Assembly: GCA_944325145.1 (NCBI GenBank)
Contig: CALYDL010000003.1
Span: 30,559-94,558, forward strand
Source: Candidatus Gastranaerophilales bacterium
Lineage (GTDB): Bacteria; Cyanobacteriota; Vampirovibrionia; Gastranaerophilales; Gastranaerophilaceae
DNA length: 64,000 nucleotides
Direction of reading: 5' to 3'
Of this stretch, positions 7,535-49,192 are shown in pieces. Below the pieces are notes generated by a model. The model saw only the letters and a program-made list of their open reading frames with translations. It did not search any database and had not been told where the DNA came from. Within the stretch, counting starts at the first letter, position 1. Every line of letters starts with the position of its first letter. Position numbers and translations under genes: made by a program.

Positions 7535-9316
7535 TTAGTTTTCTTTTTCTTTTAAAACATTTGACCAATGTTTAAGAGATTCAGCAAGCCAAGGATGTTC
7601 TTTGCTGAAGTTCGGGTTTCTTCTTCTGTTTGCTTCTAAAACTGCTTCAGGAATATTAAGGGCGTCATTATCTTCTAATCTTTTATGATATGTATCTTCA
7701 AAGTTTTCTGTCATTCTTAAAGACCAGTTGTCGCCCCCTGTAACGCCCGGCACATTGTATCTTTCTTTTATGCCAAGTAAATCTGTCCAGAAAACTTGAA
7801 CATTTTTAGCGCCTGAAGAGAATAATTCTATAAATTTATTTCTTCTCTCCATTTTATCGGGGTATAATTCTTTGGCAGAAGCCGTATCATGGTTTGCAAT
7901 CATAGCAGCGTTATTTCCGGGTGCATTCCAAACGTTGTGGGCATCGCACCATTGAGTAACCGTTATGCCGCCAATGCCAAGGTTTTGAAGTGTGTTTTTT
8001 GTATCCCCCGGCATATAGCCCAAATCTTCCGCTATGATGTTTGAGGCATTAAGCCCCGCTTTATTTGCGGCAGGAAGAACTATTTTTCTTAAAATTCTGT
8101 CGCATTTGTCTCCATTCACTCCTCTATATAATTCAGAATATAACCTTCCTTCACGGCCACCGTTTTCAGAATAAACGTATGGATCCATTAAGCCTACAAT
8201 GTGGTCTATTCTAACGCCGCCTTTGTTTTCTTCAAAGGCTCTTTCATATTTATCATATAAAAATTCGCCGGCTTCGCCTAAGGAACCGTCTTGATTGAAC
8301 AATTTTTTAGGGTCCAGCACAAAGAAGCCCCATTTTTGAGGTTTGTCGTTCCAAGGTTCTTTGCAGCCCATTCTAAGGTCATCTAAGAATAAATCTTTAT
8401 TGCCCCAAACTTCAGCATCAGAGAAGGCAACCGGAATATCGCCGATTCCTTTAATGCCGTTTTCTTGAAGGGTTCTATGGCCTTTTTCGATTGTTTTTTT
8501 TGCAAGCATTTGAGAGAAAAGGAATGAATCTATTTCTTTTTTATGATTTTCTCTTAATTCTTTTAATCTTGATGTTCTTTGTTCTTTTTCCCAATCGTTT
8601 CTTGGTTTGCTGAAAAGGTTTTTATCTGTTTCATTTCCCCAATTTGGCCAGTAATCGTTGCCATTTATATCTGTTAAAATGTTATAAAGTGCATTTTTTT
8701 CTTGTTCTTTGCCTTTGGTTTCTTTAAATTCTTGAAAATCGCTCTCTAAGCGTTCAATTCCCCTTCTTTCAACTTCAGGCAGAGAATCCTTATTTTCTCT
8801 TTTTTGAATAAATGTATCATAGGCTTCAGTTAGCGCCTTTTTTGTTTCTTGCACATTATATGTATATGCAGATTTATCTTGCCCTTTTTTAGGGTTGTTA
8901 TTTACAATTTTTCTATACGTTTCTTCGCTTAAAATAGCGCCTGATTCAGGCTTAGTGAGCTCATCCAAATTAATTATTGCAGTATTATATGCGCTTGAAT
9001 TTGAAACGTAAGGCGAAGCGTCTGTTTGTTTGCCAAGGCCTGACGGTTGTTTTTGCTGTGCGCTAAAGCCCCAATTATTTAAAAAGGGATATAAAAGTTC
9101 ATTTGAACTTCTTGAATACGGTTGCCCGACGCCTATGTCGCTTTCTTTATATGAAGGGGAACAATTTGTGGGCAATATGATTGCCATATTTTTGCCCAAT
9201 ATTTTTAAGCCTTCTTCAATATCTCTCTTAACGGCGGGTTTTTCATCTTCTCTTAATTTTCTGCCGAATGCGGGCGAATTTTGACAGTTAAAACCGGTTA
9301 CAGCACCTAACTTCAC
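7535..9316 (-). CDS. malQ: divergent GH77 4-alpha-glucanotransferase (amylomaltase-like)
   Basis: 593 aa. SPYVSNSSAYNTAIINLDEL, GVRIDHIVGL, IIAEDLGYMP, MIANHDTAS resemble the conserved GH77 blocks. Confidence 0.65.
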   Translation of the reverse strand: MKLGAVTGFNCQNSPAFGRKLREDEKPAVKRDIEEGLKILGKNMAIILPTNCSPSYKESDIGVGQPYSRSSNELLYPFLNNWGFSAQQKQPSGLGKQTDASPYVSNSSAYNTAIINLDELTKPESGAILSEETYRKIVNNNPKKGQDKSAYTYNVQETKKALTEAYDTFIQKRENKDSLPEVERRGIERLESDFQEFKETKGKEQEKNALYNILTDINGNDYWPNWGNETDKNLFSKPRNDWEKEQRTSRLKELRENHKKEIDSFLFSQMLAKKTIEKGHRTLQENGIKGIGDIPVAFSDAEVWGNKDLFLDDLRMGCKEPWNDKPQKWGFFVLDPKKLFNQDGSLGEAGEFLYDKYERAFEENKGGVRIDHIVGLMDPYVYSENGGREGRLYSELYRGVNGDKCDRILRKIVLPAANKAGLNASNIIAEDLGYMPGDTKNTLQNLGIGGITVTQWCDAHNVWNAPGNNAAMIANHDTASAKELYPDKMERRNKFIELFSSGAKNVQVFWTDLLGIKERYNVPGVTGGDNWSLRMTENFEDTYHKRLEDNDALNIPEAVLEANRRRNPNFSKEHPWLAESLKHWSNVLKEKEN

Positions 9317-9781
9317 TTAACTTCTCCTTAATTATATATATTAAATTACTTATTTCGACACAAAAAATTTCTTATTCATTTAAAACACAAAAACATTTTT
9401 TTTGCACATGGAAAAATAAAAGTCAAATTTTTGTTAAGAAATGTTAAAATTAAATTTCAAGTATAGATTAATAGTTCTCTATCTTTAAAAAAACAATTGC
9501 ATTTTTTATGTTAAGTAATATGAACAATGTAGGACAAAAACCAAAAAAAATGGTAATATAAATGCATAAAGTGTTCTTTTTACCCATTAAGGGTAAAGCA
9601 GGAAATAGAGATTAATTAACAATAGAAGATATGAAGTTTCGTTAAGCATTGCAACATAAATAAGTCAATTTTTAAGGGAAAAAATTTTTAAAATATATGT
9701 GAAGTGTTTTAGACCTTCGTGTCTTAGTGTCTCAAAAAAAGTAAGAAGTGAAGAAATTGTTATTTGGAGGAATCTGATTAT

Positions 9782-10636
9782 ATGACAATTAGTGTGAACA
9801 ACCGCAAAAAACAGGCTAAAAAAACATTTGATGAATTAATTAAAGATTTACAAACGTCTAATTCAGAAAAAGTTCGTTATAATGCTGCAAGAGTTCTTGG
9901 TGAAATGGGCGATTTTAAGGCCGTTAAACCATTAATCGATGTTTTAAAATATGATAAAAACGGTTCAGTTCGTTTATATGCCGCACGTGCATTGGGCGAA
10001 TTGGGCGATACAAACGCAACTGTTCCTTTAATTGAATCTTTAAGAGAAGATAGAAACGTTGACGTTCGTGTTCGTGCAGCAAGAGCATTAGGCCGTTTGG
10101 GCGGTGCAATTGTTGTAGAACCCCTTGTTGAAGCACTTAATGATGAAAACCCTCAAGTTTGTATTACTGCAACCGATGCCCTAATTGAAATCGGCGATGT
10201 TGCAGCAGATGCTTTAATTGAATCACTTGACCATGAAAAAGTTAACGTTAGATGCGATGCTACAAGAGCATTGGGTGAAATTGGCAACAGAAAAGCTGTT
10301 GAAAAAATTATCACAATGTTAAAAGATGAATGGGTTAACGTTAGAATTTATGCCGTAACTTCACTCGGTAAATTAGGCGATACAAAAGCAGTTCCTGCTT
10401 TAATTGAAGTTATGGAAGATAAAAATGAAAACGACTTGGTTAGAGCTGGTGCAGCAGCTGCACTCGGCGTTTTAAGAGACCAAAGAGCCCTTCTTCCTTT
10501 AAGAAAATTAATTATTGAAGCTGAAGAACTTGGCGAACTTGAAGATACAGCTTTGAAATCATTCAAGAAAATTATGGCTGCTAACTGGGAATCAATCCCC
10601 GGTGCTGCACCCGTTAAAAAACCGGCTTTATTCTAA
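9782..10636 (+). CDS. HEAT-repeat (PBS-lyase type) protein
   Basis: Repeated about 31-aa units (VRxxAARALGExGDxxAVxPLIxxL). GGAGG upstream of ATG 9782. Confidence 0.8.
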   Translation: MTISVNNRKKQAKKTFDELIKDLQTSNSEKVRYNAARVLGEMGDFKAVKPLIDVLKYDKNGSVRLYAARALGELGDTNATVPLIESLREDRNVDVRVRAARALGRLGGAIVVEPLVEALNDENPQVCITATDALIEIGDVAADALIESLDHEKVNVRCDATRALGEIGNRKAVEKIITMLKDEWVNVRIYAVTSLGKLGDTKAVPALIEVMEDKNENDLVRAGAAAALGVLRDQRALLPLRKLIIEAEELGELEDTALKSFKKIMAANWESIPGAAPVKKPALF

Positions 10637-10800: not shown

Positions 10801-11841
10801 ATGATACAATTAACGCAAGCGCATATTTTAGGGGCAATCATTGCCTATCTTTTAGGGGTTTTTATAGTTCCCATTGTTATTTATTATTCAGATAAAATGG
10901 GGCTTGTAGATGTTCCAAACGAAAGAAAAATTCACAAAGGAAAAATTTCAAGGCTTGGTGGCATTGGAATTTGGCTTGCCGTTATGCTCACATTTTTGTT
11001 TTTGGTTTTATTAAGCTATTACCCAAAGGGCCAAGGGTTATCGGGCATTATTGTGGGCGGTTCTTTAATGTTTTTATTGGGGCTTATAGATGACCTTTTC
11101 TGTTTGAACGCAAAATTTAAACTCTTTTTGCAAATTGTAATTGCTACAATGGTGCTTTTATTGGGTGTTAGAATAGATGAAGTTTATAACCCGTTTGGAA
11201 ATAATTTTGAACTCGGCCTATTGGCATATCCCATAACCTTGCTTTGGATTGTAGGCATTACAAATGCAATTAATTTTATAGATGGTATAGACGGTTTGGC
11301 AGGTTCTGTTGTTACGATAGGTTCTGTTGCAATTGCGATAATTTCAATTGTTGCAACGCCATCTTCCCCAATTTCTGCTTTGGTTGCAATAATTTTATCA
11401 GGCGCCATGCTTGCATTTTTAACTTTTAATTATAACCCCGCTAAAATTTTTATGGGAGATTCAGGCGCTTTATTTGCAGGGTTTATGTTATCAACCCTTT
11501 CAATTACGGGTATTATGGACGCTGGAACGCCTTTAATGTATCTTCCTTTCTTAATTTTGGCTATTCCAATTTTAGATGTGGCATATTCATCATTAAGGAG
11601 AATTTCAAAAGGAAAAAGCCCTTTTGTTGCAGATTCTGAACACATTCACCACAAATTGCTGCACCACGGGTTTTCGCAAGATTTGGCAGTTTTAACATTG
11701 TCATCTGTTTCAATGGCATGTGCTATTGTTGCAATAATTATTACAGGCTTTTTGAACAGATACTTTATTTTTGCAATTGCACTTGCTTTTGTTCTTTTTC
11801 TTTTAAATGCAGTTTCAAAAACCATTAAGAAAAAAGCGTAA
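10801..11841 (+). CDS. glycosyltransferase family 4 polyprenyl-phosphate sugar-1-phosphate transferase (MraY/WecA/TagO-like)
   Basis: 346 aa, multi-TM. NAINFIDGIDGLA, FMGDSGALFAGF. Its stop codon lies inside the first repeat unit of array A. Confidence 0.85.
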   Translation: MIQLTQAHILGAIIAYLLGVFIVPIVIYYSDKMGLVDVPNERKIHKGKISRLGGIGIWLAVMLTFLFLVLLSYYPKGQGLSGIIVGGSLMFLLGLIDDLFCLNAKFKLFLQIVIATMVLLLGVRIDEVYNPFGNNFELGLLAYPITLLWIVGITNAINFIDGIDGLAGSVVTIGSVAIAIISIVATPSSPISALVAIILSGAMLAFLTFNYNPAKIFMGDSGALFAGFMLSTLSITGIMDAGTPLMYLPFLILAIPILDVAYSSLRRISKGKSPFVADSEHIHHKLLHHGFSQDLAVLTLSSVSMACAIVAIIITGFLNRYFIFAIALAFVLFLLNAVSKTIKKKA

Positions 11842-12226
11842 AGCCAGAGTGAAGGGCAAAATGATGAATTTTGCCCGAAACTGTTGAATTGCGACGTAGG
11901 ATAATCAAAGCTTGTGAGCGACAACGCTAGTGAAAGCGAACAAAAGCTTTGATACCCACAGGAGCAAAAAAGCATAAAGCCGTGTGTGTAGCCGTTAAAA
12001 ATGGCAAGACGTTATCGTCTTGGCATTTTAGGCGAAACCGTACGATGCCGCTGTTATGACGAAGTGAGCAAATGCGAACGAAGGAATGAACAAATCTTAG
12101 TAAAAATAAGAAGCGGTGCGACTTTGTCGCATAAGCTCTATTTTTACTGATTTGACAGGCGGAAAAAAGCATAAAACCAGAGCGAAGCTCAATGCGTTGA
12201 GCATTGAGCACAGCTATTGAATGTAC
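11836..12226 (+). repeat. modular hairpin-repeat array A
   Basis: Starts AGCGTAAAGCCAGAG overlapping the stop at 11839-11841. Contains hairpin 11854-11876, the core CTGTTGAAT..GACGTAGGATAAT..ATACCCACAGGAGC (11881-11965), a long hairpin module (12083-12163) and a further partial unit (12168-12226). Confidence 0.9.
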
Positions 12227-12286
12227 TAAAAAAATAAGTTGGGGCAAAAACCCCAACATATAAATTTTTCTACACGGTTTATTATT

Positions 12287-24888: not shown

Positions 24889-25839
24889 ATGAAAAAATAC
24901 AGAATAGGAGTTGATGTTGGCGGCACAAACGTTAAACTTGCGCTTGTAGATTTAAACGGCAAAATAGTTTATTCAAATACAACGCCAACAAGAGCAGACC
25001 TTGGATATGAACATTCAATTGCAAACATTCAAAATGCCATTGAAGAATTAATGAAAGAAACAAACACAAATAAAGATACAGTTGAAGCAATCGGCTTTGG
25101 TTTCCCCGGGCAAATTGATTATACGGCAGGCGTTGTAAGGCTTTTAACAAATATGCCGGGGTGGGTTGAAATTCCTTTGGCAAAAATTATGGAAGATAAA
25201 TTTAAAATTCCAACTAAATTGGATAATGATGTTCGTGTTGCAACGTTAGGCGAATTAAAATATGGTGCCGGCAAAGGCTGCAGCAATTTGGTTTGTATAA
25301 CAGTAGGTACAGGCATTGGTTCGGGGCTTGTTATAAACGGCAAACTTGTTAGAGGTGCAAAAAACGCTGCAGGTGAAATCGGCCACATTAAAATGACTAT
25401 GGGCGATGGCCCCATTTGCGGTTGCGGCGATTACGGGTGCTTAGAAGCTTATGCTTCAGGCCCATCTATTGTAGCTGAAGCAAAAGAATATATTAAAGGC
25501 GGAAAATCATCCAAATTTAAAGAACTTGCAACAGAAGAATTAAGCCCTTATATTGTGGCACAAGCTGCACTTCAAGGGGATGCCGTTGCAAAAAGAATTT
25601 ATGCTAAAATGGGCGAAATAATAGGCCTTGGTTTAACATCAGTTATTAACCTTTTAAACCCTGAAAGAGTTATTATAGGCGGCGGTGTTGCTGATGCAGG
25701 CGATATTTTGTTTAACCCGATTAAAGAAACAATTGCAAAACGTGCAATGCCAATTCAAGCAAAAAGCGTTGAAATTGTTCCTGCGCAATTAGGAAACACA
25801 GCAGGTGTCATCGGCGCAAGCTTATTAATTGAATCGTAA
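24889..25839 (+). CDS. glk: ROK-family glucokinase
   Basis: 316 aa. GVDVGGTNVKL, GTGIGSGLV, Zn motif GHIKMTMGDGPICGCGDYGCLE. Confidence 0.85.
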   Translation: MKKYRIGVDVGGTNVKLALVDLNGKIVYSNTTPTRADLGYEHSIANIQNAIEELMKETNTNKDTVEAIGFGFPGQIDYTAGVVRLLTNMPGWVEIPLAKIMEDKFKIPTKLDNDVRVATLGELKYGAGKGCSNLVCITVGTGIGSGLVINGKLVRGAKNAAGEIGHIKMTMGDGPICGCGDYGCLEAYASGPSIVAEAKEYIKGGKSSKFKELATEELSPYIVAQAALQGDAVAKRIYAKMGEIIGLGLTSVINLLNPERVIIGGGVADAGDILFNPIKETIAKRAMPIQAKSVEIVPAQLGNTAGVIGASLLIES

Positions 25840-25844
25840 AGAAT

Positions 25845-26048
25845 GCGTAAGCCAGAGCGAAGCTCAATGCGTTGAGCATTGAGCGCAGCTGTTGAATGGC
25901 GACGTAGGATAATCAAAGCTTGCGAACGACAACGCTAGTGGAAGTGAGCAAAAGCTTTGATACCCACAGGAGCAAAAAAGCGTAAGCCAGAGTGTAGGCA
26001 GGAGTGTTGAACTCCTGCCGAAACTGTTGATAGCCGCCGTTAAAAAAT
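25845..26048 (+). repeat. modular hairpin-repeat array B
   Basis: GCGTAAGCCAGAGCG starts 6 nt after the glk stop. Contains hairpin 25862-25884, core to 25973 and a second unit with hairpin 25997-26019. Confidence 0.9.
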
Positions 26049-26056
26049 AAAAAAGC

Positions 26057-26086
26057 AAAGCCCATCTTTTTTTGATGGGCTTTTTT
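26057..26086. terminator. bidirectional terminator
   Basis: AAAGCCCATC-TTTTTTT-GATGGGCTTTTTT between convergent glk/array B and the minus-strand pilin gene. Confidence 0.7.
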
Positions 26087-26088
26087 AA

Positions 26089-26103: not shown

Positions 26104-26832
26104 CTATTTCTTAGCCTGAGCCTGATACATCGCTCTTTGCGCTGCAACGCCATAAGGAATTGCAGCTTTTTCTGTAATCATTATAGAAAAAATATCTGTC
26201 AATTTTGTCCCCAAGGGGTCAGCTTGTTTGTAATAGTTGTCAATGGCGCAATCATATGATTTGCAACTTGCATTTTGGGGTGACGGTTTTCTGTCACCGT
26301 TAACATCAACCATAATTATACAAGGTGGTTTTGTTGTGCCATCGGGGTTATTGTTTAATCCATATGATCCACAATAGCAAGGCGTTCCGCCTTCTGCATA
26401 AGTTTTTGTAGTAATAGTGCACAAAGAAATTGCAGGGTTTTCATACAATGGAAAAGATTTTGTATAATGAGGCCCCGACCAATTCCAAAATTCAAAACGC
26501 ATTCCATCCGTAGTATAAAATGCACTATTTCTCCTTTGTCCTTTTGAATCATATGAAATAAATTGCTCAGTCATATGGGGAACAACGCGAGAAACGCTCA
26601 TATGGCGCATTAAAAAAGCCATTAAATCTGCATTATCATAAGGAGATTCGCCATCAATTGCCATATTCATTGTAATGGCACTGTTAAGCACGCTTACTGC
26701 TTTTCTTAATCCTGTTTTAAATTCTTGTTGTTGAGAATTACTGATTACAGATGGTATAGATATTGCTGCAACAACACCAATAATTGCAAGCGTGATAAGC
26801 ACTTCTGCCAGTGTAAAACCTCTTTTTTTCAT
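26104..26832 (-). CDS. type IV pilin-like protein (prepilin N-terminal cleavage/methylation domain), paralog 1
   Basis: 242 aa. MKKRG|FTLAEVLITLAIIGVVAAISIPS, conserved CGSYGLNNNP..PPCIIMVDVNGDRKP and C-terminal AIPYGVAAQRAMYQAQ. Confidence 0.85.
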   Translation of the reverse strand: MKKRGFTLAEVLITLAIIGVVAAISIPSVISNSQQQEFKTGLRKAVSVLNSAITMNMAIDGESPYDNADLMAFLMRHMSVSRVVPHMTEQFISYDSKGQRRNSAFYTTDGMRFEFWNWSGPHYTKSFPLYENPAISLCTITTKTYAEGGTPCYCGSYGLNNNPDGTTKPPCIIMVDVNGDRKPSPQNASCKSYDCAIDNYYKQADPLGTKLTDIFSIMITEKAAIPYGVAAQRAMYQAQAKK

Positions 26833-39660: not shown

Positions 39661-39758
39661 AATAATCATTGAAAGACAGCACATTCTCAAACGAATCACC
39701 ACACTAAGTTAAACATTAACAACGAGAGAACCAAGTGAAATAAAATTTAAAAAATCAC

Positions 39759-39786
39759 TTGACAATAAATTTTGAGATGTTAAGCT
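39759..39786 (+). promoter_or_regulatory. rRNA promoter candidate P2
   Basis: TTGACA, 16 nt spacer, TAAGCT, preceded by an A-run. Shares the ..CTTGAC..TTGAGATG.TAAG.. frame with P3 and P4. Confidence 0.55.
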
Positions 39787-39873
39787 GTTAAAGCTGACCT
39801 TTTACAAGCTAACATTTTAAACTGGAAAAATTTCTCAAGTTTCAACAATTAAGTTGATTTAAAAAATAACCGC

Positions 39874-39901
39874 TTGACATTAAAACTTGAGATGATAAGC
39901 T
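39874..39901 (+). promoter_or_regulatory. rRNA promoter candidate P3
   Basis: TTGACA, 16 nt spacer, TAAGCT, preceded by AAAAAATAACCGC. Confidence 0.55.
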
Positions 39902-39972
39902 TGTTAAGCACGGGTTACCAAAACCCAAAATCTTGAGTGTAAACTTAAGTTAAGAAAATAAAAAATTAACGC

Positions 39973-40000
39973 TTGACTTTAAAACTTGAGATGATAAGAT
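39973..40000 (+). promoter_or_regulatory. rRNA promoter candidate P4
   Basis: TTGACT, 16 nt spacer, TAAGAT, preceded by AAAAAATTAACGC. Confidence 0.6.
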
Positions 40001-40097
40001 ACTAAAGGCGGTTGAAACGCCTTCTGGTAAAGGGATGGTTAAAGCTGATTAAAGGCTTATTTTAAAGCGCCCTTTATAATGTAAAAGATTTATTCTT

Positions 40098-40109: not shown

Positions 40110-40235
40110 TAGAATAACATAATACAAACGACAAATACCTGTTGATTTTTTTAAGAAAAACAATCGGACAAAAGCTAAAGCTTTAAATTTTGAGTCAATC
40201 ACTTCTTTCTGAAGTGTCAGACATAAATTTCTGAC

Positions 40236-41754
<1,519 letters not shown>

Positions 41755-41944
41755 TAGGGAGATTTCGGTAGCGATTGAATTTCAATCAGCGTATAAAACC
41801 GACATCCCAAGGTCGATACCGATATAAAGATTAATTTGTTTATGATTGTTTTATCAAGTTAATCAAGGTATCAAAAAAATCGACAGGTATTTGCAGTTTG
41901 TTTTTGTTTATGTTATTCTTCTTTCAGTGTTCAAACTGAAAACC

Positions 41945-41956
41945 GCACATTGAAAA
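41945..41956 (+). promoter_or_regulatory. BoxA-like motif in the 16S-23S spacer
   Basis: GCACATTGAAAA, just 5' of the outer 23S processing-stem strand. Confidence 0.45.
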
Positions 41957-42040
41957 TTACATATAGATAATAAGCGTAAGTTAACTAAATCGAAATTATT
42001 TTCTGAAAAGTTAATAACGTAATTGAACCAATGTAAGAAA

Positions 42041-42169
42041 GCGTAAGCCGGTGCTGATATGAGCCGTGTTGAACGGCGAATGAAGCACTACGATGGCGAC
42101 GTAGGATAATTGAACCTTGCGAACGACAGCGAATGCGAAGTGAGCAAAAGGTGAAATACCCACAGGAGC
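42041..42169 (+). repeat. diverged copy (E) of the hairpin-repeat core inside the 23S leader
   Basis: GCGTAAGCCGG..hairpin GCCGT-GTTGA-ACGGC (42063-42077)..GGCGACGTAGGATAAT..GCGAAC..GTGAGC..ATACCCACAGGAGC. Confidence 0.85.
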
Positions 42170-42187
42170 CATAAAAGGTTTACGACA

Positions 42188-45192
<3,005 letters not shown>

Positions 45193-45311
45193 TGAATCTT
45201 AGCAAAACACCAAAATGCTAAGTTTATTGGTTCAAAATATTATCTGTATGTAACTTTCAGCGTGTTGGCTGTGAGTTCAATCTCAAAATCAGCTGAACAC
45301 TAACCGGATTT

Positions 45312-45427
45312 TCTGGTGGCCAGGCGGCAGGATCCCACCCGTTCCCATCCCGAACACGGTCGTAAAGACTGCTTGCGCTGACAATACTTGGAGGGTAGCC
45401 TCCTGGGAAGATAAGTAGCTGCCAGAT
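45312..45427 (+). rRNA. rrf: 5S ribosomal RNA
   Basis: TCTGGTGGCC..CCCGTTCCCATCCCGAACACGG..GCTGCCAGA; termini pair. Confidence 0.9.
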
Positions 45428-45443
45428 TCTATATTTAAAAAAA

Positions 45444-45476
45444 TAACCTTTAAGAAATATCTTAGAGGTTATTTTT
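45444..45476 (+). terminator. rRNA operon terminator
   Basis: TAACCTTTAAG-AAATAT-CTTAGAGGTTA followed by TTTTTT. Confidence 0.7.
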
Positions 45477-45500
45477 TATCTATTTTTTATATCAGCCTTC

Positions 45501-45670
45501 GCTCCCCCTCACAATACTTTTAGGGTAGTCGCTCCTTTTGAAGATAAAGTAGCTTTCAAATTCTATATTAAAAAAAAGTAACCTTTAAGAATTATCTTAG
45601 AGGTTATTTTTTATCTATTTTTTTATCAGCCTTCGATTCCCCTAACAATACTTTTAGGGTAGTCGCTTTT
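45501..45670 (+). repeat. degenerate tandem copies of the 5S 3' half plus terminator
   Basis: CACAATACTTTTAGGGTAGTCGCTCCTTTTGAAGATAAAGTAGCTTTCAAATTCTATATT.. mirrors 45380-45500, including a second terminator hairpin at about 45578-45611. A third partial copy starts about 45634. Confidence 0.8.
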
Positions 45671-46545: not shown

Positions 46546-47280
46546 ATGTATAAATTAAAAGCTTTCACACTGGCAGAAGTTTTAATAACTCTTGCTATCA
46601 TTGGCGTAGTTGCAGCAATATCTATTCCAAGTGTTATTTCAAACTCTCAACAACAAGAATTTAAAACTGGATTAAGAAAAGCCGTCAGCGTGCTAAATTC
46701 AGCTATTACTATGAATATGGCAATTGATGGCGAAACACCATATGAAAATAAAGATTTATACTATTATCTACAAAGGCATATGGGGGTTTTAAAAACAACG
46801 TTAAGGATGCCATATAATACAGTAACAAAAAGGAATGACGGCAGAACTAATTCAAATACTGACAATGCTGCTTTTTATACAACAGATGGTTTTAGATATG
46901 AATTTAACATCTCAAAAGTTGGTGACACCGCAGAAACACTAAAACTCCATGAAAGCAACGTTTATGCTTGTTCGGCAACTCACCCTGTAAATTTAGGCTG
47001 GGTTACTTGCGGCGGGTGCGGTAGCTATGGGCTAAACCATAATCCAAATGGCACAACAAAACCCCCTTGTCTTATTATGGTTGATGTAAACGGCGATAAA
47101 AAACCAACGCCATCAAATGTTAATTGCCAAAGTCCGGAGTGTGTTTCTCAAAATTTGTACAAAGTGCCACTTCCGGCTGAAAAGAAAGTTCGCGATATAT
47201 TTTCAATTTTAATAACAGAAGATAGGGCGATTCCTTACGGGGTGACAGCACAAAAAGCAATGTATCAGGCACAAAAGTAA
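46546..47280 (+). CDS. type IV pilin-like protein, paralog 2
   Basis: 244 aa. MYKLKA|FTLAEVLITLAIIGVVAAISIPS (Ala at -1), CGGCGSYGLNHNPNGTTKPPC, C-terminal AIPYGVTAQKAMYQAQK. Confidence 0.85.
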   Translation: MYKLKAFTLAEVLITLAIIGVVAAISIPSVISNSQQQEFKTGLRKAVSVLNSAITMNMAIDGETPYENKDLYYYLQRHMGVLKTTLRMPYNTVTKRNDGRTNSNTDNAAFYTTDGFRYEFNISKVGDTAETLKLHESNVYACSATHPVNLGWVTCGGCGSYGLNHNPNGTTKPPCLIMVDVNGDKKPTPSNVNCQSPECVSQNLYKVPLPAEKKVRDIFSILITEDRAIPYGVTAQKAMYQAQK

Positions 47281-47281
47281 T

Positions 47282-47620
47282 GCGTAAGCCAGAGCGAAGC
47301 TCAATGCGTTGAGCATTGAGTGCAGCTGTTGAATGGCGACGTAGGATAATCAAAGCTTGTGAGCAAGAACGCAAGTGAAAGCGAACAAAAGCTTTGATAC
47401 CCACAGGAGCAAAATAAAAGGTGTGTGAAGTTTTTAAAGTGTGATGAACACTTTAAAAACGAAACCGTTCCAAACCGCCGTTATGAAGCGGAGTTGAAAA
47501 CGAAGCGGAATGAACAAATCTTAGTAAAAATAAGAAGCGGTGCGACTTTGTCGCATAAGCTCTATTTTTACTGATTTGACAGGCGGAAGAAAGAAAGCAT
47601 AAAGCCAGATTGGAAATAAT
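47282..47620 (+). repeat. modular hairpin-repeat array C
   Basis: GCGTAAGCCAGAGCG starts 2 nt after the pilin stop. Contains hairpin 47299-47321, core to 47410, hairpin with TGATGAA loop at about 47431-47459, and the long hairpin module 47507-47587. Confidence 0.9.
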
Positions 47621-47635: not shown

Positions 47636-47640
47636 ATAAA

Positions 47641-47675
47641 AGCTCAAAGAATTATTCTTTGAGCTTATTTTTTTT
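47641..47675 (+). terminator. intrinsic terminator
   Basis: AGCTCAAAG-AATTATT-CTTTGAGCT followed by TATTTTTTTT. Confidence 0.75.
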
Positions 47676-48175: not shown

Positions 48176-48907
48176 ATGAAAAGATTTTATGGGTTTACAT
48201 TAGCGGAAGTGCTTATCACGCTTGCTATCATTGGCGTAGTTGCCGCAATTTCTATTCCAAGTGTTATTTCAAACTCTCAACAACAAGAATTTAAAACAGG
48301 CTTAAGAAAAGCAGTTTCTGTTTTAAATAGTGCCATAACTATGAATATGGCAATAGATGGCGAAACACCATATGATAATAAAGATTTATTTGGATATTTA
48401 ACAAGACATATGAGCACCTTGAAAGCTCCTGCAACAATTGATTTTGCTTATTATTATAAGTCTCATGACGGCAGCGTGACTGTTGGCGGACATAATTATG
48501 GTTTTTATACAACTGATGGTATTAGATTTGAGTATTATGGTTCTGCAAAAAATACCAATTTCCCTGGGCCAAAACTTCATGAAAGCGGTGTTAGGTCGTG
48601 TGTAAATAATGCTGATGGTTTTTGCGGCGGTTGTGGGTCATATGGCCTCAATCATAATCCCAATGGTACAACTAAACCCCCATGCGCTATTTTAGTTGAT
48701 GTAAATGGCGACAAAAAACCATATCCGGGCAATGTAAATTGCAAGTGGGCAGATGGTGTGAAATGTTTTGGTAAATATAATGTATTAAAAGGCCCGCTTC
48801 CGGGTGAAAAGAAAATTAAAGATATTTTTACAATTTTAATCACAGATGAAAAAGCCATTCCCTATGGCGTAACTGCGCAAAAGGCAATGTATCAGGCACA
48901 GAAGTAA
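48176..48907 (+). CDS. type IV pilin-like protein, paralog 3
   Basis: 243 aa. MKRFYG|FTLAEVLITLAIIGVVAAISIPS, CGGCGSYGLNHNPNGTTKPPC, C-terminal AIPYGVTAQKAMYQAQK. Confidence 0.85.
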   Translation: MKRFYGFTLAEVLITLAIIGVVAAISIPSVISNSQQQEFKTGLRKAVSVLNSAITMNMAIDGETPYDNKDLFGYLTRHMSTLKAPATIDFAYYYKSHDGSVTVGGHNYGFYTTDGIRFEYYGSAKNTNFPGPKLHESGVRSCVNNADGFCGGCGSYGLNHNPNGTTKPPCAILVDVNGDKKPYPGNVNCKWADGVKCFGKYNVLKGPLPGEKKIKDIFTILITDEKAIPYGVTAQKAMYQAQK

Positions 48908-48908
48908 T

Positions 48909-49135
48909 GCGTAAGCCAGAGCGAAGCTCAATGCGTTGAGCATTGAGCGCAGCTGTTGAATGGCGACGTAGGATAATCAAAGCTTGTGAGCAAGAACGCA
49001 AGTGAAAGCGAACAAAAGCTTTGATACCCACAGGAGCAAAATAAAAGGTGTGTGAAATTTTTAAAGTGTGATGAACACTTTAAAAATGAAACCGTTCCAA
49101 GCTGCCGTTATGAAGCGAAGTTGAAAACGAAGGAA
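48909..49135 (+). repeat. modular hairpin-repeat array D
   Basis: GCGTAAGCCAGAGCG starts 2 nt after the pilin stop. Contains hairpin 48926-48948 and core to about 49037. Same as array C but lacks the long hairpin module. Confidence 0.9.
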
Positions 49136-49143
49136 AAAACAAA

Positions 49144-49157: not shown

Positions 49158-49162
49158 AAATA

Positions 49163-49192
49163 AGCTCATCATTTGATGGGCTTTGCTTTTTT
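49163..49192 (+). terminator. intrinsic terminator
   Basis: AGCTCATC-ATTT-GATGGGCT followed by TTGCTTTTTT. Confidence 0.65.

Follow-up and report, generated by a model that had tools for sequence, protein, structure and literature searches.

Why should a repeat that follows protein-coding genes also lie in the leader of a 23S ribosomal RNA (rRNA)? The question is raised by a 64-kb stretch of a Candidatus Gastranaerophilales genome (contig CALYDL010000003.1, positions 30,559 to 94,558; hereafter the window, meaning the whole stretch of DNA that was analysed), which comes from a gut-dwelling, non-photosynthetic lineage related to the cyanobacteria. Our analysis shows a transcribed RNA module, about 97-155 nt long, that folds independently and is specific to the order Gastranaerophilales; it constitutes an undescribed structured RNA family. 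The copy in the 23S leader is an old feature, and its position is kept in at least three species. As to function, we tentatively favor, with a probability of roughly 35%, a reading by analogy with known sites, in which the element would act in cis to direct processing and to protect 3' ends, being recognised by an RNase III-family enzyme (RNase III or Mini-III) and perhaps by a dedicated RNA-binding protein as well.

The repeat copy in the 23S rRNA leader

The window has one rRNA operon, on the plus strand, with 16S at 40234-41753, 23S at 42188-45194 (Rfam RF02541, 2803 bits, model positions 1-2925) and 5S at 45312-45427; ARAGORN found no transfer RNA (tRNA) or transfer-messenger RNA anywhere in the 64 kb. 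Two sequences from the repeat each occur five times in the window, always on the plus strand: GGCGACGTAGGATAAT, for which 0.22 occurrences are expected, and ATACCCACAGGAGC, for which 0.09 are expected and which has one additional minus-strand match with two mismatches. A covariance model based on 43 diverse copies, applied to the window without filters, recovered five full-length copies at 108-114 bits and a few partial units, and no copy on the minus strand. The copy in the 23S leader (42040-42169, plus strand; model match 42040-42172) is full length and scores 110 bits (E 5e-26), compared with 108-114 bits for the other four. Its fold has a z-score of -4.2 and covariation-backed pairs, and 18 nt separate its end from the mature 23S 5' terminus at 42188. 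To collect loci from other genomes, we used an exact two-block pattern on bacterial contigs from one genome per species, which gave 111 loci with more than 130 copies, from metagenome-assembled genomes (MAGs) of Gastranaerophilales (Melainabacteria). Among 80 listed titles, the taxon names are solely Gastranaerophilales, Melainabacteria or Cyanobacteria, and the remaining titles are animal-gut MAGs.

The leader copy consists of a mini-hairpin P1 (42041-42048, GC-GUAA-GC), a hairpin P2 (42050-42089), a joiner (42090-42095) and a long irregular hairpin P3 (42096-42169) with AGGAG inside it at 42164-42168. Minimum free energy (MFE) and centroid folds of this leader, and of the leaders of two further species described below (L115 and L116), predict an additional helix, P0, that closes the entire leader element 1 nt before 23S helix 1. 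In the window its 3' strand, GGUUUACG at 42177-42184, pairs with CGUAAGCC at 42042-42049; in L115 and L116 the 3' strand is GGCAUACG, with seven of eight positions paired in the predicted folds. P0 was found in the rRNA-leader copies only, and not in mRNA copies.

The initial annotation of this DNA, made from the sequence alone, described the leader copy as diverged, and this does not hold. The copy keeps features of the order-wide consensus (GGUGC/GCACU-ACGAU and the UGA/GAA tandem G.A), and it is the four 3' untranslated region (UTR) copies of this genome that share, unlike the leader copy, a derived CAAAG/CUUUG block; the leader copy is therefore not the diverged one. The individual differences listed by the annotation are real: comparison of the window copies confirms that a G-C pair of hairpin 2 is flipped to C-G in the leader copy and that hairpin 1 has a different stem with the same GUUGA loop. 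AGCGTAAG does occur a second time in the spacer, at 41973-41980.

A bipartite processing stem had also been proposed around the 23S, and when leader and trailer were folded together both halves were recovered exactly. The outer stem pairs 41945-41972 with 45238-45265 at probabilities of 0.87-1.0, which includes a predicted outward extension of the 5' strand over 41945-41955 and of the 3' strand from 45253 to 45265. The inner stem pairs UUGAACCAAUG at 42023-42033 with 45225-45235, at probabilities of 0.72-1.0 over 42023-42032. Most pair probabilities are 0.9-1.0, and the lowest, 0.72 and 0.87, fall at the ends of the halves. Long complementarity thus flanks the 23S on both sides, as in a leader/trailer stem of the RNase III type. 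The MFE structure contains two more plus-strand hairpins, one bulging from the processing stem in the leader (41973-42022, with AGCGUAAG as 5' strand and its partner UAACGU at 42015-42021) and one in the trailer, between the 23S 3' end and the stem (45199-45223). The repeat element folds independently in the multiloop that the stem encloses. The claim that a repeat copy sits inside the processing stem therefore stands as regards the presence of a full copy, which is located in the enclosed loop and not in the stem itself. Because this copy lies between the 16S (or the leader) and the 23S, within the leader/trailer stem, it follows from its position that it is co-transcribed with the rRNA and removed on maturation, as the annotation had it.

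To find leader copies in other organisms, we searched metagenome contigs for places where the conserved 23S start comes 20-50 nt after the 3' block. Three of the five matches are true leader matches (L112, L115 and L116), and the other two (L113 and L114) are GC-rich chance matches. L112 belongs to the window's species and has an almost identical spacer, and L115 and L116 come from two other Gastranaerophilales species, with mutual identity of 93% over the first 400 nt of the 23S. The initial annotation had asked whether relatives carry the insert; all three leaders have a full copy at the same position, starting 2-5 nt past ...AACCAAUGUA and ending 18-25 nt ahead of GGUAAAGC. Across species the core of the leader copies is invariant, while P2 and the distal part of P3 are wholly different in sequence and still helical. 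AACCAAUG of the inner stem is kept in L115 and L116, where, by eye, GCG...hairpin...ACGUAA precedes it as a counterpart of the 41973-42022 hairpin.

Neither L115 nor L116 has a 16S within about 600 nt upstream of its 23S; a promoter-like region and the end of another repeat unit are found at 560-650 nt. Because no 16S is nearby, the element is associated with the 23S and not with the spacer as such, and from these sequences the 23S seems to be unlinked from the 16S in both species, unlike in the window. The 111 MAG loci are silent on rRNA context because none of them has an rRNA (0 of 111). MAG contigs break at rRNA operons, and the motif is itself a likely cause of contig breaks in Gastranaerophilales assemblies. 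A search for other rRNA operons by way of the neighboring RgpF-like gene reached none, all 19 contigs being at most 3.1 kb long and ending before the operon.

The leaders have two further features. About 230-330 nt upstream of the element, the L115 leader contains a P2-like module (UAGGAUGUGAG...GACACUGGACU) between copies of a 28-nt direct repeat, CGATAATTTTTTCGAGCAAAATTTGTTT, which from its arrangement may be the footprint of a module insertion. At the foot of the outer stem (window 41920-41960, and likewise in the L115 and L116 leaders), a boxB-like hairpin (UUUCAGUGUUCAAACUGAAA) is followed by a conserved ACAUUGAAAAUURCAUA, which, judging by its sequence, is likely a boxA-type antitermination site.

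Fold, covariation and relation to known RNA families

The general architecture of the element is a P1 mini-hairpin (GC-GNNA-GC), a variable P2, a short joiner and a long irregular P3. P1 has just two pairs and is tentative; among the 118 copies with a recognisable 5' piece, GUAA is its commonest loop, a GNRA loop is present in 50 and a stop triplet in 81. P2 ranges from GGUGC-GNRA-GCACU up to 60 nt, the longer forms having GAA/GAA internal loops and a CGWUGAG loop. The base of P3 is formed by an invariant block, GCGACGUAGGAUAAU, paired with a second invariant block, GAUACCCACAGGAGC, and contains tandem G.A pairs and bulged A residues, with AGGAG buried in it.

The pairing of the two invariant blocks is proven by rare variants that show double changes. 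A C-G pair becomes G-C in L009, a U-A pair becomes C-G in L081, and in L042 an A-U and a U-A pair become G-C and C-G; in L035 a U-A pair becomes U.G. Over 131 distinct model-aligned copies, standard pairs occupy 93.4% of cells and 16 of the 20 pairs show changes on both sides. None of 500 shuffles reached the observed pairing, and slid controls were 29-55% paired. The predicted folds are very stable, their free energies lying between -43 and -47 kcal/mol and their z-scores between -4 and -5.8. The G.U pairs, GNRA loops and tandem or sheared G.A pairs point to a structure of RNA rather than DNA, on the transcribed strand. An RNAalifold model made from the five window copies alone, which pairs 5' GCGUAAGCC with GGCGACGU (GCGU..GCC with GGC.ACGU), was rejected: its 5' strand varies uncompensated, and the double changes prove the pairing of the invariant blocks. 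A small open reading frame (ORF) or coding repeat was discarded as well, given stop codons in two frames of the conserved block and the varying helix lengths.

An Rfam 15 scan of the window at gathering thresholds returned the rRNAs only, and scans of the leader, best-scoring and minimal copies up to E = 10 gave only chance-level matches of at most 18 bits. Hammerhead, twister, pistol, hatchet, hairpin and HDV ribozymes, group II D5-D6, HEARO/IS605, riboswitches and Bacillaceae-1 were thus rejected, with no Rfam 15 match. Blastn found no match among GenBank phages or PLSDB plasmids, and a literature search for non-coding RNA, structured RNA or repeats of Melainabacteria or Gastranaerophilales found nothing relevant. 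Several other candidates (CsrA sponge, k-turn, T-box, hammerhead-like CUGAUGA/GAAAC, integron attC, IS200/IS605 and omega-RNA) were dismissed on sequence grounds, either because the features that define them are missing or because housekeeping genes flank the element.

Placement behind genes and behavior in arrays

Counted with heuristic gene calls, and with some loci orthologous to each other, 77 copies have the upstream gene on their own strand and 33 have it on the other, and copies between co-directional genes are sense in 32 cases and antisense in 5. Placement relative to the stop codon is tight. Among 23 non-redundant copies with a nearby upstream ORF, 21 begin at -8 to +5 nt from the stop; eight of the 23 supply the stop codon themselves (the UAA of GCG-UAA-GCC), and another 12 begin 1-5 nt after it. 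The upstream genes are unrelated to each other, their 46 proteins forming 39 clusters. Downstream, 18 clusters were counted and only a Mu-type transposase recurs, and most copies have no ORF start within 70 nt downstream. A riboswitch or other cis-regulatory leader was rejected on these grounds, there being no coherent set of downstream genes and most copies following genes. Arrays of the element are followed by intrinsic terminators, and in the window four of the five copies close an operon, with an intrinsic terminator directly after them and a convergent gene facing it.

These four window copies, which like the leader copy are of the kind that we call type 1, all stand at the head of arrays on the plus strand. 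The copy at 11836-11965 follows a glycosyltransferase family 4 gene (10801-11841) whose stop codon is the motif's own UAA; a type-2 unit (11972-12162), a truncated P1-P2 unit (12169-12231) and terminator-like hairpins come after it. The copy at 25844-25973 starts 5 nt past the stop of a ROK kinase gene (24889-25839) and is followed by a truncated second unit (25979-26059; P1-P2 plus GCCGCCGUUA; covariance match with E 2e-4) and a terminator at about 26055-26087. The other two begin 1 nt past the stops of pilin-like paralogs. Behind the first of these, p1 (46546-47280), the copy at 47281-47410 precedes a type-2 unit (47420-47586) plus a truncated P1-P2a that runs to 47620, and then the native 3' UTR with its terminator (47640-47666). 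Behind the second, p2 (48176-48907), the copy at 48908-49037 precedes a truncated type-2 unit (49047-49140) and a terminator (49162-49183).

The type-2 unit is a sister module, with the 5' domain of type 1 (GCGNNAGCC plus P2) and a different 3' domain, CCGCCGUUGYGA...AAAUCUUUGAUUUSACAGGCGG-AAAA (that is, CCGCCGUUG...UUUGAUUUSACAGGCGG), closed by CCGCC/GGCGG. The two types share a bulged A and GU/AC pairs. Type 2 is also found truncated at 25979-26045 of the window, and further in L007, L011, L016, L048, L053, L085, L088 and L116. In addition, CCCUGGUAGCUCAGCU recurs immediately upstream of some copies (L018, L046 and L084), and its position suggests that it is probably the 3' end of another module type.

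The pilin-like genes provide a comparison of filled and empty sites. The window encodes three such paralogs with an N_methyl domain, p1, p2 and a third, p3, on the minus strand (26104-26832), and these have their N and C termini in common, as well as a native 3' UTR, AUUUAUCCUUUCAUU, plus a terminator. At p3 the stop codon runs straight into AAUUAUCCUUUCAUU and the terminator, while p1 and p2 have the array precisely at the junction of stop codon and native 3' UTR. No target-site duplication is seen at these filled and empty sites, and inspection of the consensus shows no terminal inverted repeats, its ends, GCGUAAGCC... and ...CACAGGAGC, not being complementary. Elements of the miniature inverted-repeat transposable type (Correia, ERIC, Nezha) were accordingly rejected: inverted ends and target duplication are absent, and one orientation prevails (five of five plus in the window; 32 versus 5 in the collection).

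Individual arrays have been both kept and rearranged. At orthologous loci, two or three species retain the element after the same gene, and orthologous first units are 0.77-0.93 identical, compared with 0.49-0.82 at fourfold-degenerate sites of the adjacent genes. This difference points to constraint on individual copies, or else to homogenisation by gene conversion. Changes between orthologous arrays include unit duplication, deletion and exchange of the 3' domain. Within this genome, the same composite of type-1 unit, type-2 unit and truncated P1-P2 is found behind two unrelated genes (11836-12231 and 47281-47620), so that a block of about 390 nt must have spread or been converted; the near-identical variable helices at unrelated loci likewise show recent intragenomic spread or conversion.

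Two placements are on mobile DNA. At 13 or more loci, a minimal copy of 97 nt forms the 5' UTR of a Mu-type transposase of 650-684 aa (Mu-transpos_C plus rve), opposite a small helix-turn-helix gene (L070 6813-6909, minus strand; also L002, L012, L029, L043, L055, L059, L066, L083, L089, L094, L102 and others). At these loci the AGGAG of the motif is the Shine-Dalgarno sequence, 6-9 nt before the ATG, as it also is for a dnaG-like and a gltD-like gene. In a phage contig from IMG/VR (L117), a copy lies between two minus-strand genes, at 9495-9944 and 8939-9340: upstream is a tail protein gene (tail-tube type) that follows the sheath gene, and its stop is inside the motif; downstream is a tail assembly chaperone gene.

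Possible functions of the element

The initial annotation had suggested that the rRNA and mRNA copies are a processing module shared through an RNase or RNA-binding protein, which, by analogy, we find plausible. In the RNase III-type reading that we prefer, the enzyme would cleave the 3' strand of P3, so that a very stable structure, which blocks 3' exonucleases, would cap the upstream RNA right after its stop codon; the same cut would free the downstream RNA with its AGGAG unpaired and would uncouple adjacent cistrons. The distance from the leader/trailer stem to the mature 23S end is 155 nt in this lineage. In pre-23S RNA, cutting P3 would remove this 155-nt leader segment left after stem cleavage, and about 25 nt would remain for exonucleolytic trimming to helix 1.

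This model has precedents. RNase III-type cuts furnish the upstream RNA with a protective 3' hairpin and can free a downstream ribosome-binding site, and the early RNase III sites of phage T7 are cut between cistrons in this way, leaving a protective 3' hairpin. The RNase III signals of T7 early mRNA and of rRNA operons, and the Mini-III sites of 23S, are, like the element, irregular hairpins between cistrons and in rRNA precursors. The element occurs in contexts typical of RNase III-type signals: rRNA precursors, phage operons downstream of abundantly expressed structural genes, and transposase leaders in which the Shine-Dalgarno sequence is masked. The element differs from these sites in its conserved P1/P2 5' domain and 30-nt invariant helix, and in its occurrence in more than 100 sampled copies across an order. 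Unlike the RNase III sites of rRNA, it lies within the loop of the leader/trailer stem and does not form that stem. Spacer tRNAs are likewise structured RNAs within an rRNA precursor and direct its endonucleolytic separation, but the element has no cloverleaf and no CCA-type end. Mini-III matures 23S and prefers ACC^U in double-stranded RNA (PMC4357697). The invariant helix has ACCC opposite AGG(A)U, and the comparison with this preference may provide a lead.

Several observations weigh against this reading. No cleavage site, RNase gene or binding protein could be tied to the element, and classical RNase III substrates need no 30 invariant nucleotides. The pairing of the processing stem is seen in the window only, the L115 and L116 contigs having no trailer, and the ACAGGCGG at the end of the type-2 unit resembles a Shine-Dalgarno sequence less. 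Core conservation is overstated because the loci were gathered by an exact-match pattern, and it could come in part from gene conversion among copies. Near-identical copies, truncated units and domain swaps are the pattern of a selfish repeat, and gene conversion could therefore mimic purifying selection.

The strongest rival, which we consider unlikely though within reach of the preferred reading, is indeed that the element is a selfish or neutral interspersed repeat, akin to BOX, enterobacterial repetitive intergenic consensus (ERIC) or repetitive extragenic palindromic (REP) sequences, spread and homogenised by recombination or gene conversion. Its fold would then serve its own propagation or be harmless, and the leader copy would be an old insertion, tolerated since the leader is discarded. 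In its favor are the nearly identical variable helices and the recurring composite unit at unrelated loci of this genome. Orthologous arrays differ by tandem units that are identical, by truncated units and by swaps of the 3' domain, and the upstream genes are unrelated (39 clusters for 46 proteins); a phage contig and a Mu-type transposon have copies too, and the empty site of the pilin paralog marks the array as an insertion. It would less readily explain why orthologous copies change more slowly than fourfold-degenerate sites, why sense orientation is strict and the stop-codon register tight, and why three species hold the leader position, where the copy has an invariant core and a P0 of its own. 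Inspection revealed neither terminal inverted repeats nor target duplication, and no associated transposase was found.

Comparison with known repeats bears on the same question. Like the REP elements of enterobacteria and the mosaic BIMEs they compose, the element is a high-copy structured repeat in transcribed 3' intergenic regions, with a stable fold 3' of genes. REP elements act as barriers to 3' exonucleases and evolve by gene conversion. Unlike the element, they are palindromes of about 35 nt without a long invariant irregular helix, occur in both orientations in BIMEs and are linked to RAYT transposases, and we know of no REP in an rRNA leader. A REP with a GTAG head and RAYT was rejected because the element comprises three hairpins over 97-155 nt, although no genome-wide search for a RAYT was made. 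BOX elements of Streptococcus pneumoniae, ERIC and Correia (NEMIS) elements are also modular, multicopy, intergenic, co-transcribed and RNA-folding, and the shuffled modules of BOX are comparable to the type-1, type-2 and partial units seen here. RNase III cleaves the hairpins of Correia elements, and ERIC elements influence the decay of mRNA. Correia and ERIC differ from the element in having inverted-repeat ends and occurring in both orientations, and none of the three families has its strict stop-codon register, order-wide invariance or conserved rRNA-leader copy. The ecology of the element thus resembles that of REP and BOX repeats, and it is set apart by its long invariant helix, its strict stop-codon register and its conserved copy in the rRNA leader. 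As with the element, many REPs are within 15 nt of stop codons, and such REPs influence translation (PMC12306157, citing Liang 2015, PMC4427526).

That precedent of stop-proximal REP elements also favors a device linked to translation, in which a fold at the stop codon stalls or positions terminating ribosomes and a locked AGGAG uncouples or damps the next gene. We think this improbable. The register of -8 to +5 nt in 21 of 23 copies and the position of AGGAG within the P3 base helix suit it, as does the use of AGGAG as a Shine-Dalgarno sequence at the 13 Mu-type transposase loci and the dnaG-like and gltD-like genes. Yet most copies have no ORF start within 70 nt downstream, many are followed by terminators only, the type-2 module has no good Shine-Dalgarno sequence, and the leader copy is in untranslated rRNA.

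There is a slim chance that the element is a new class of self-cleaving ribozyme, which would punctuate transcripts, pre-23S included, in a protein-free manner. Hammerhead and twister ribozymes have a comparable distribution, being multicopy, sense, intergenic and phage-borne like the element, and about 30 invariant nt in an irregular helix or junction, surrounded by freely covarying helices, could belong to a ribozyme; a site just upstream of the mature rRNA end also fits a cleaving element. However, no known family matches even at E = 10, no candidate cleavage site can be named, and the invariant nucleotides are mostly paired and do not form an open catalytic core. We give a similarly slim chance to a broader proposal of universal transcript punctuation, in which a new self-cleaving ribozyme or a dedicated substrate of a sequence-specific double-strand RNase would provide one signal for the 23S 5' end and for more than 100 mRNA and phage 3' ends or cistron boundaries.

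Least probable of all is that the element acts in processive antitermination or modifies RNA polymerase, as put, EAR or boxA-boxB do, because, for all its presence in the rRNA leader, the Mu-type early leader and operon interiors, most copies stand just before terminators (four of five in the window, at operon ends facing convergent genes), and the leaders have a separate boxA-like ACAUUGAAAA and boxB-like hairpin upstream.

With its strong covariation, 30-nt invariant irregular helix and strict stop-codon register, the element may well belong to a new system of recognition between RNA and a protein or RNase, or be a ribozyme. To our knowledge, no dispersed structured repeat is a conserved part of an rRNA precursor in other bacteria. 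If the RNase III-type reading is true, mRNA 3'-end formation and rRNA processing would be under one signal. The leader copy gives a concrete starting point for work on how the 23S 5' end matures in a lineage of which very few members are in culture, and the motif is a specific marker of Gastranaerophilales DNA and of the phages of these organisms.

Two features of the rRNA operon lie away from the 23S leader. Upstream of the 16S, at 39745-40007, are three promoter-like direct repeats of about 49 nt, with TTGACA or TTGACT, spaced 99-115 nt apart, which from their sequence are probably tandem rRNA promoters. Downstream of the 5S is a tandem duplication of about 135 nt (45413-45533 and 45547-45667), which includes a 5S 3'-end remnant and an 18-pair terminator hairpin.

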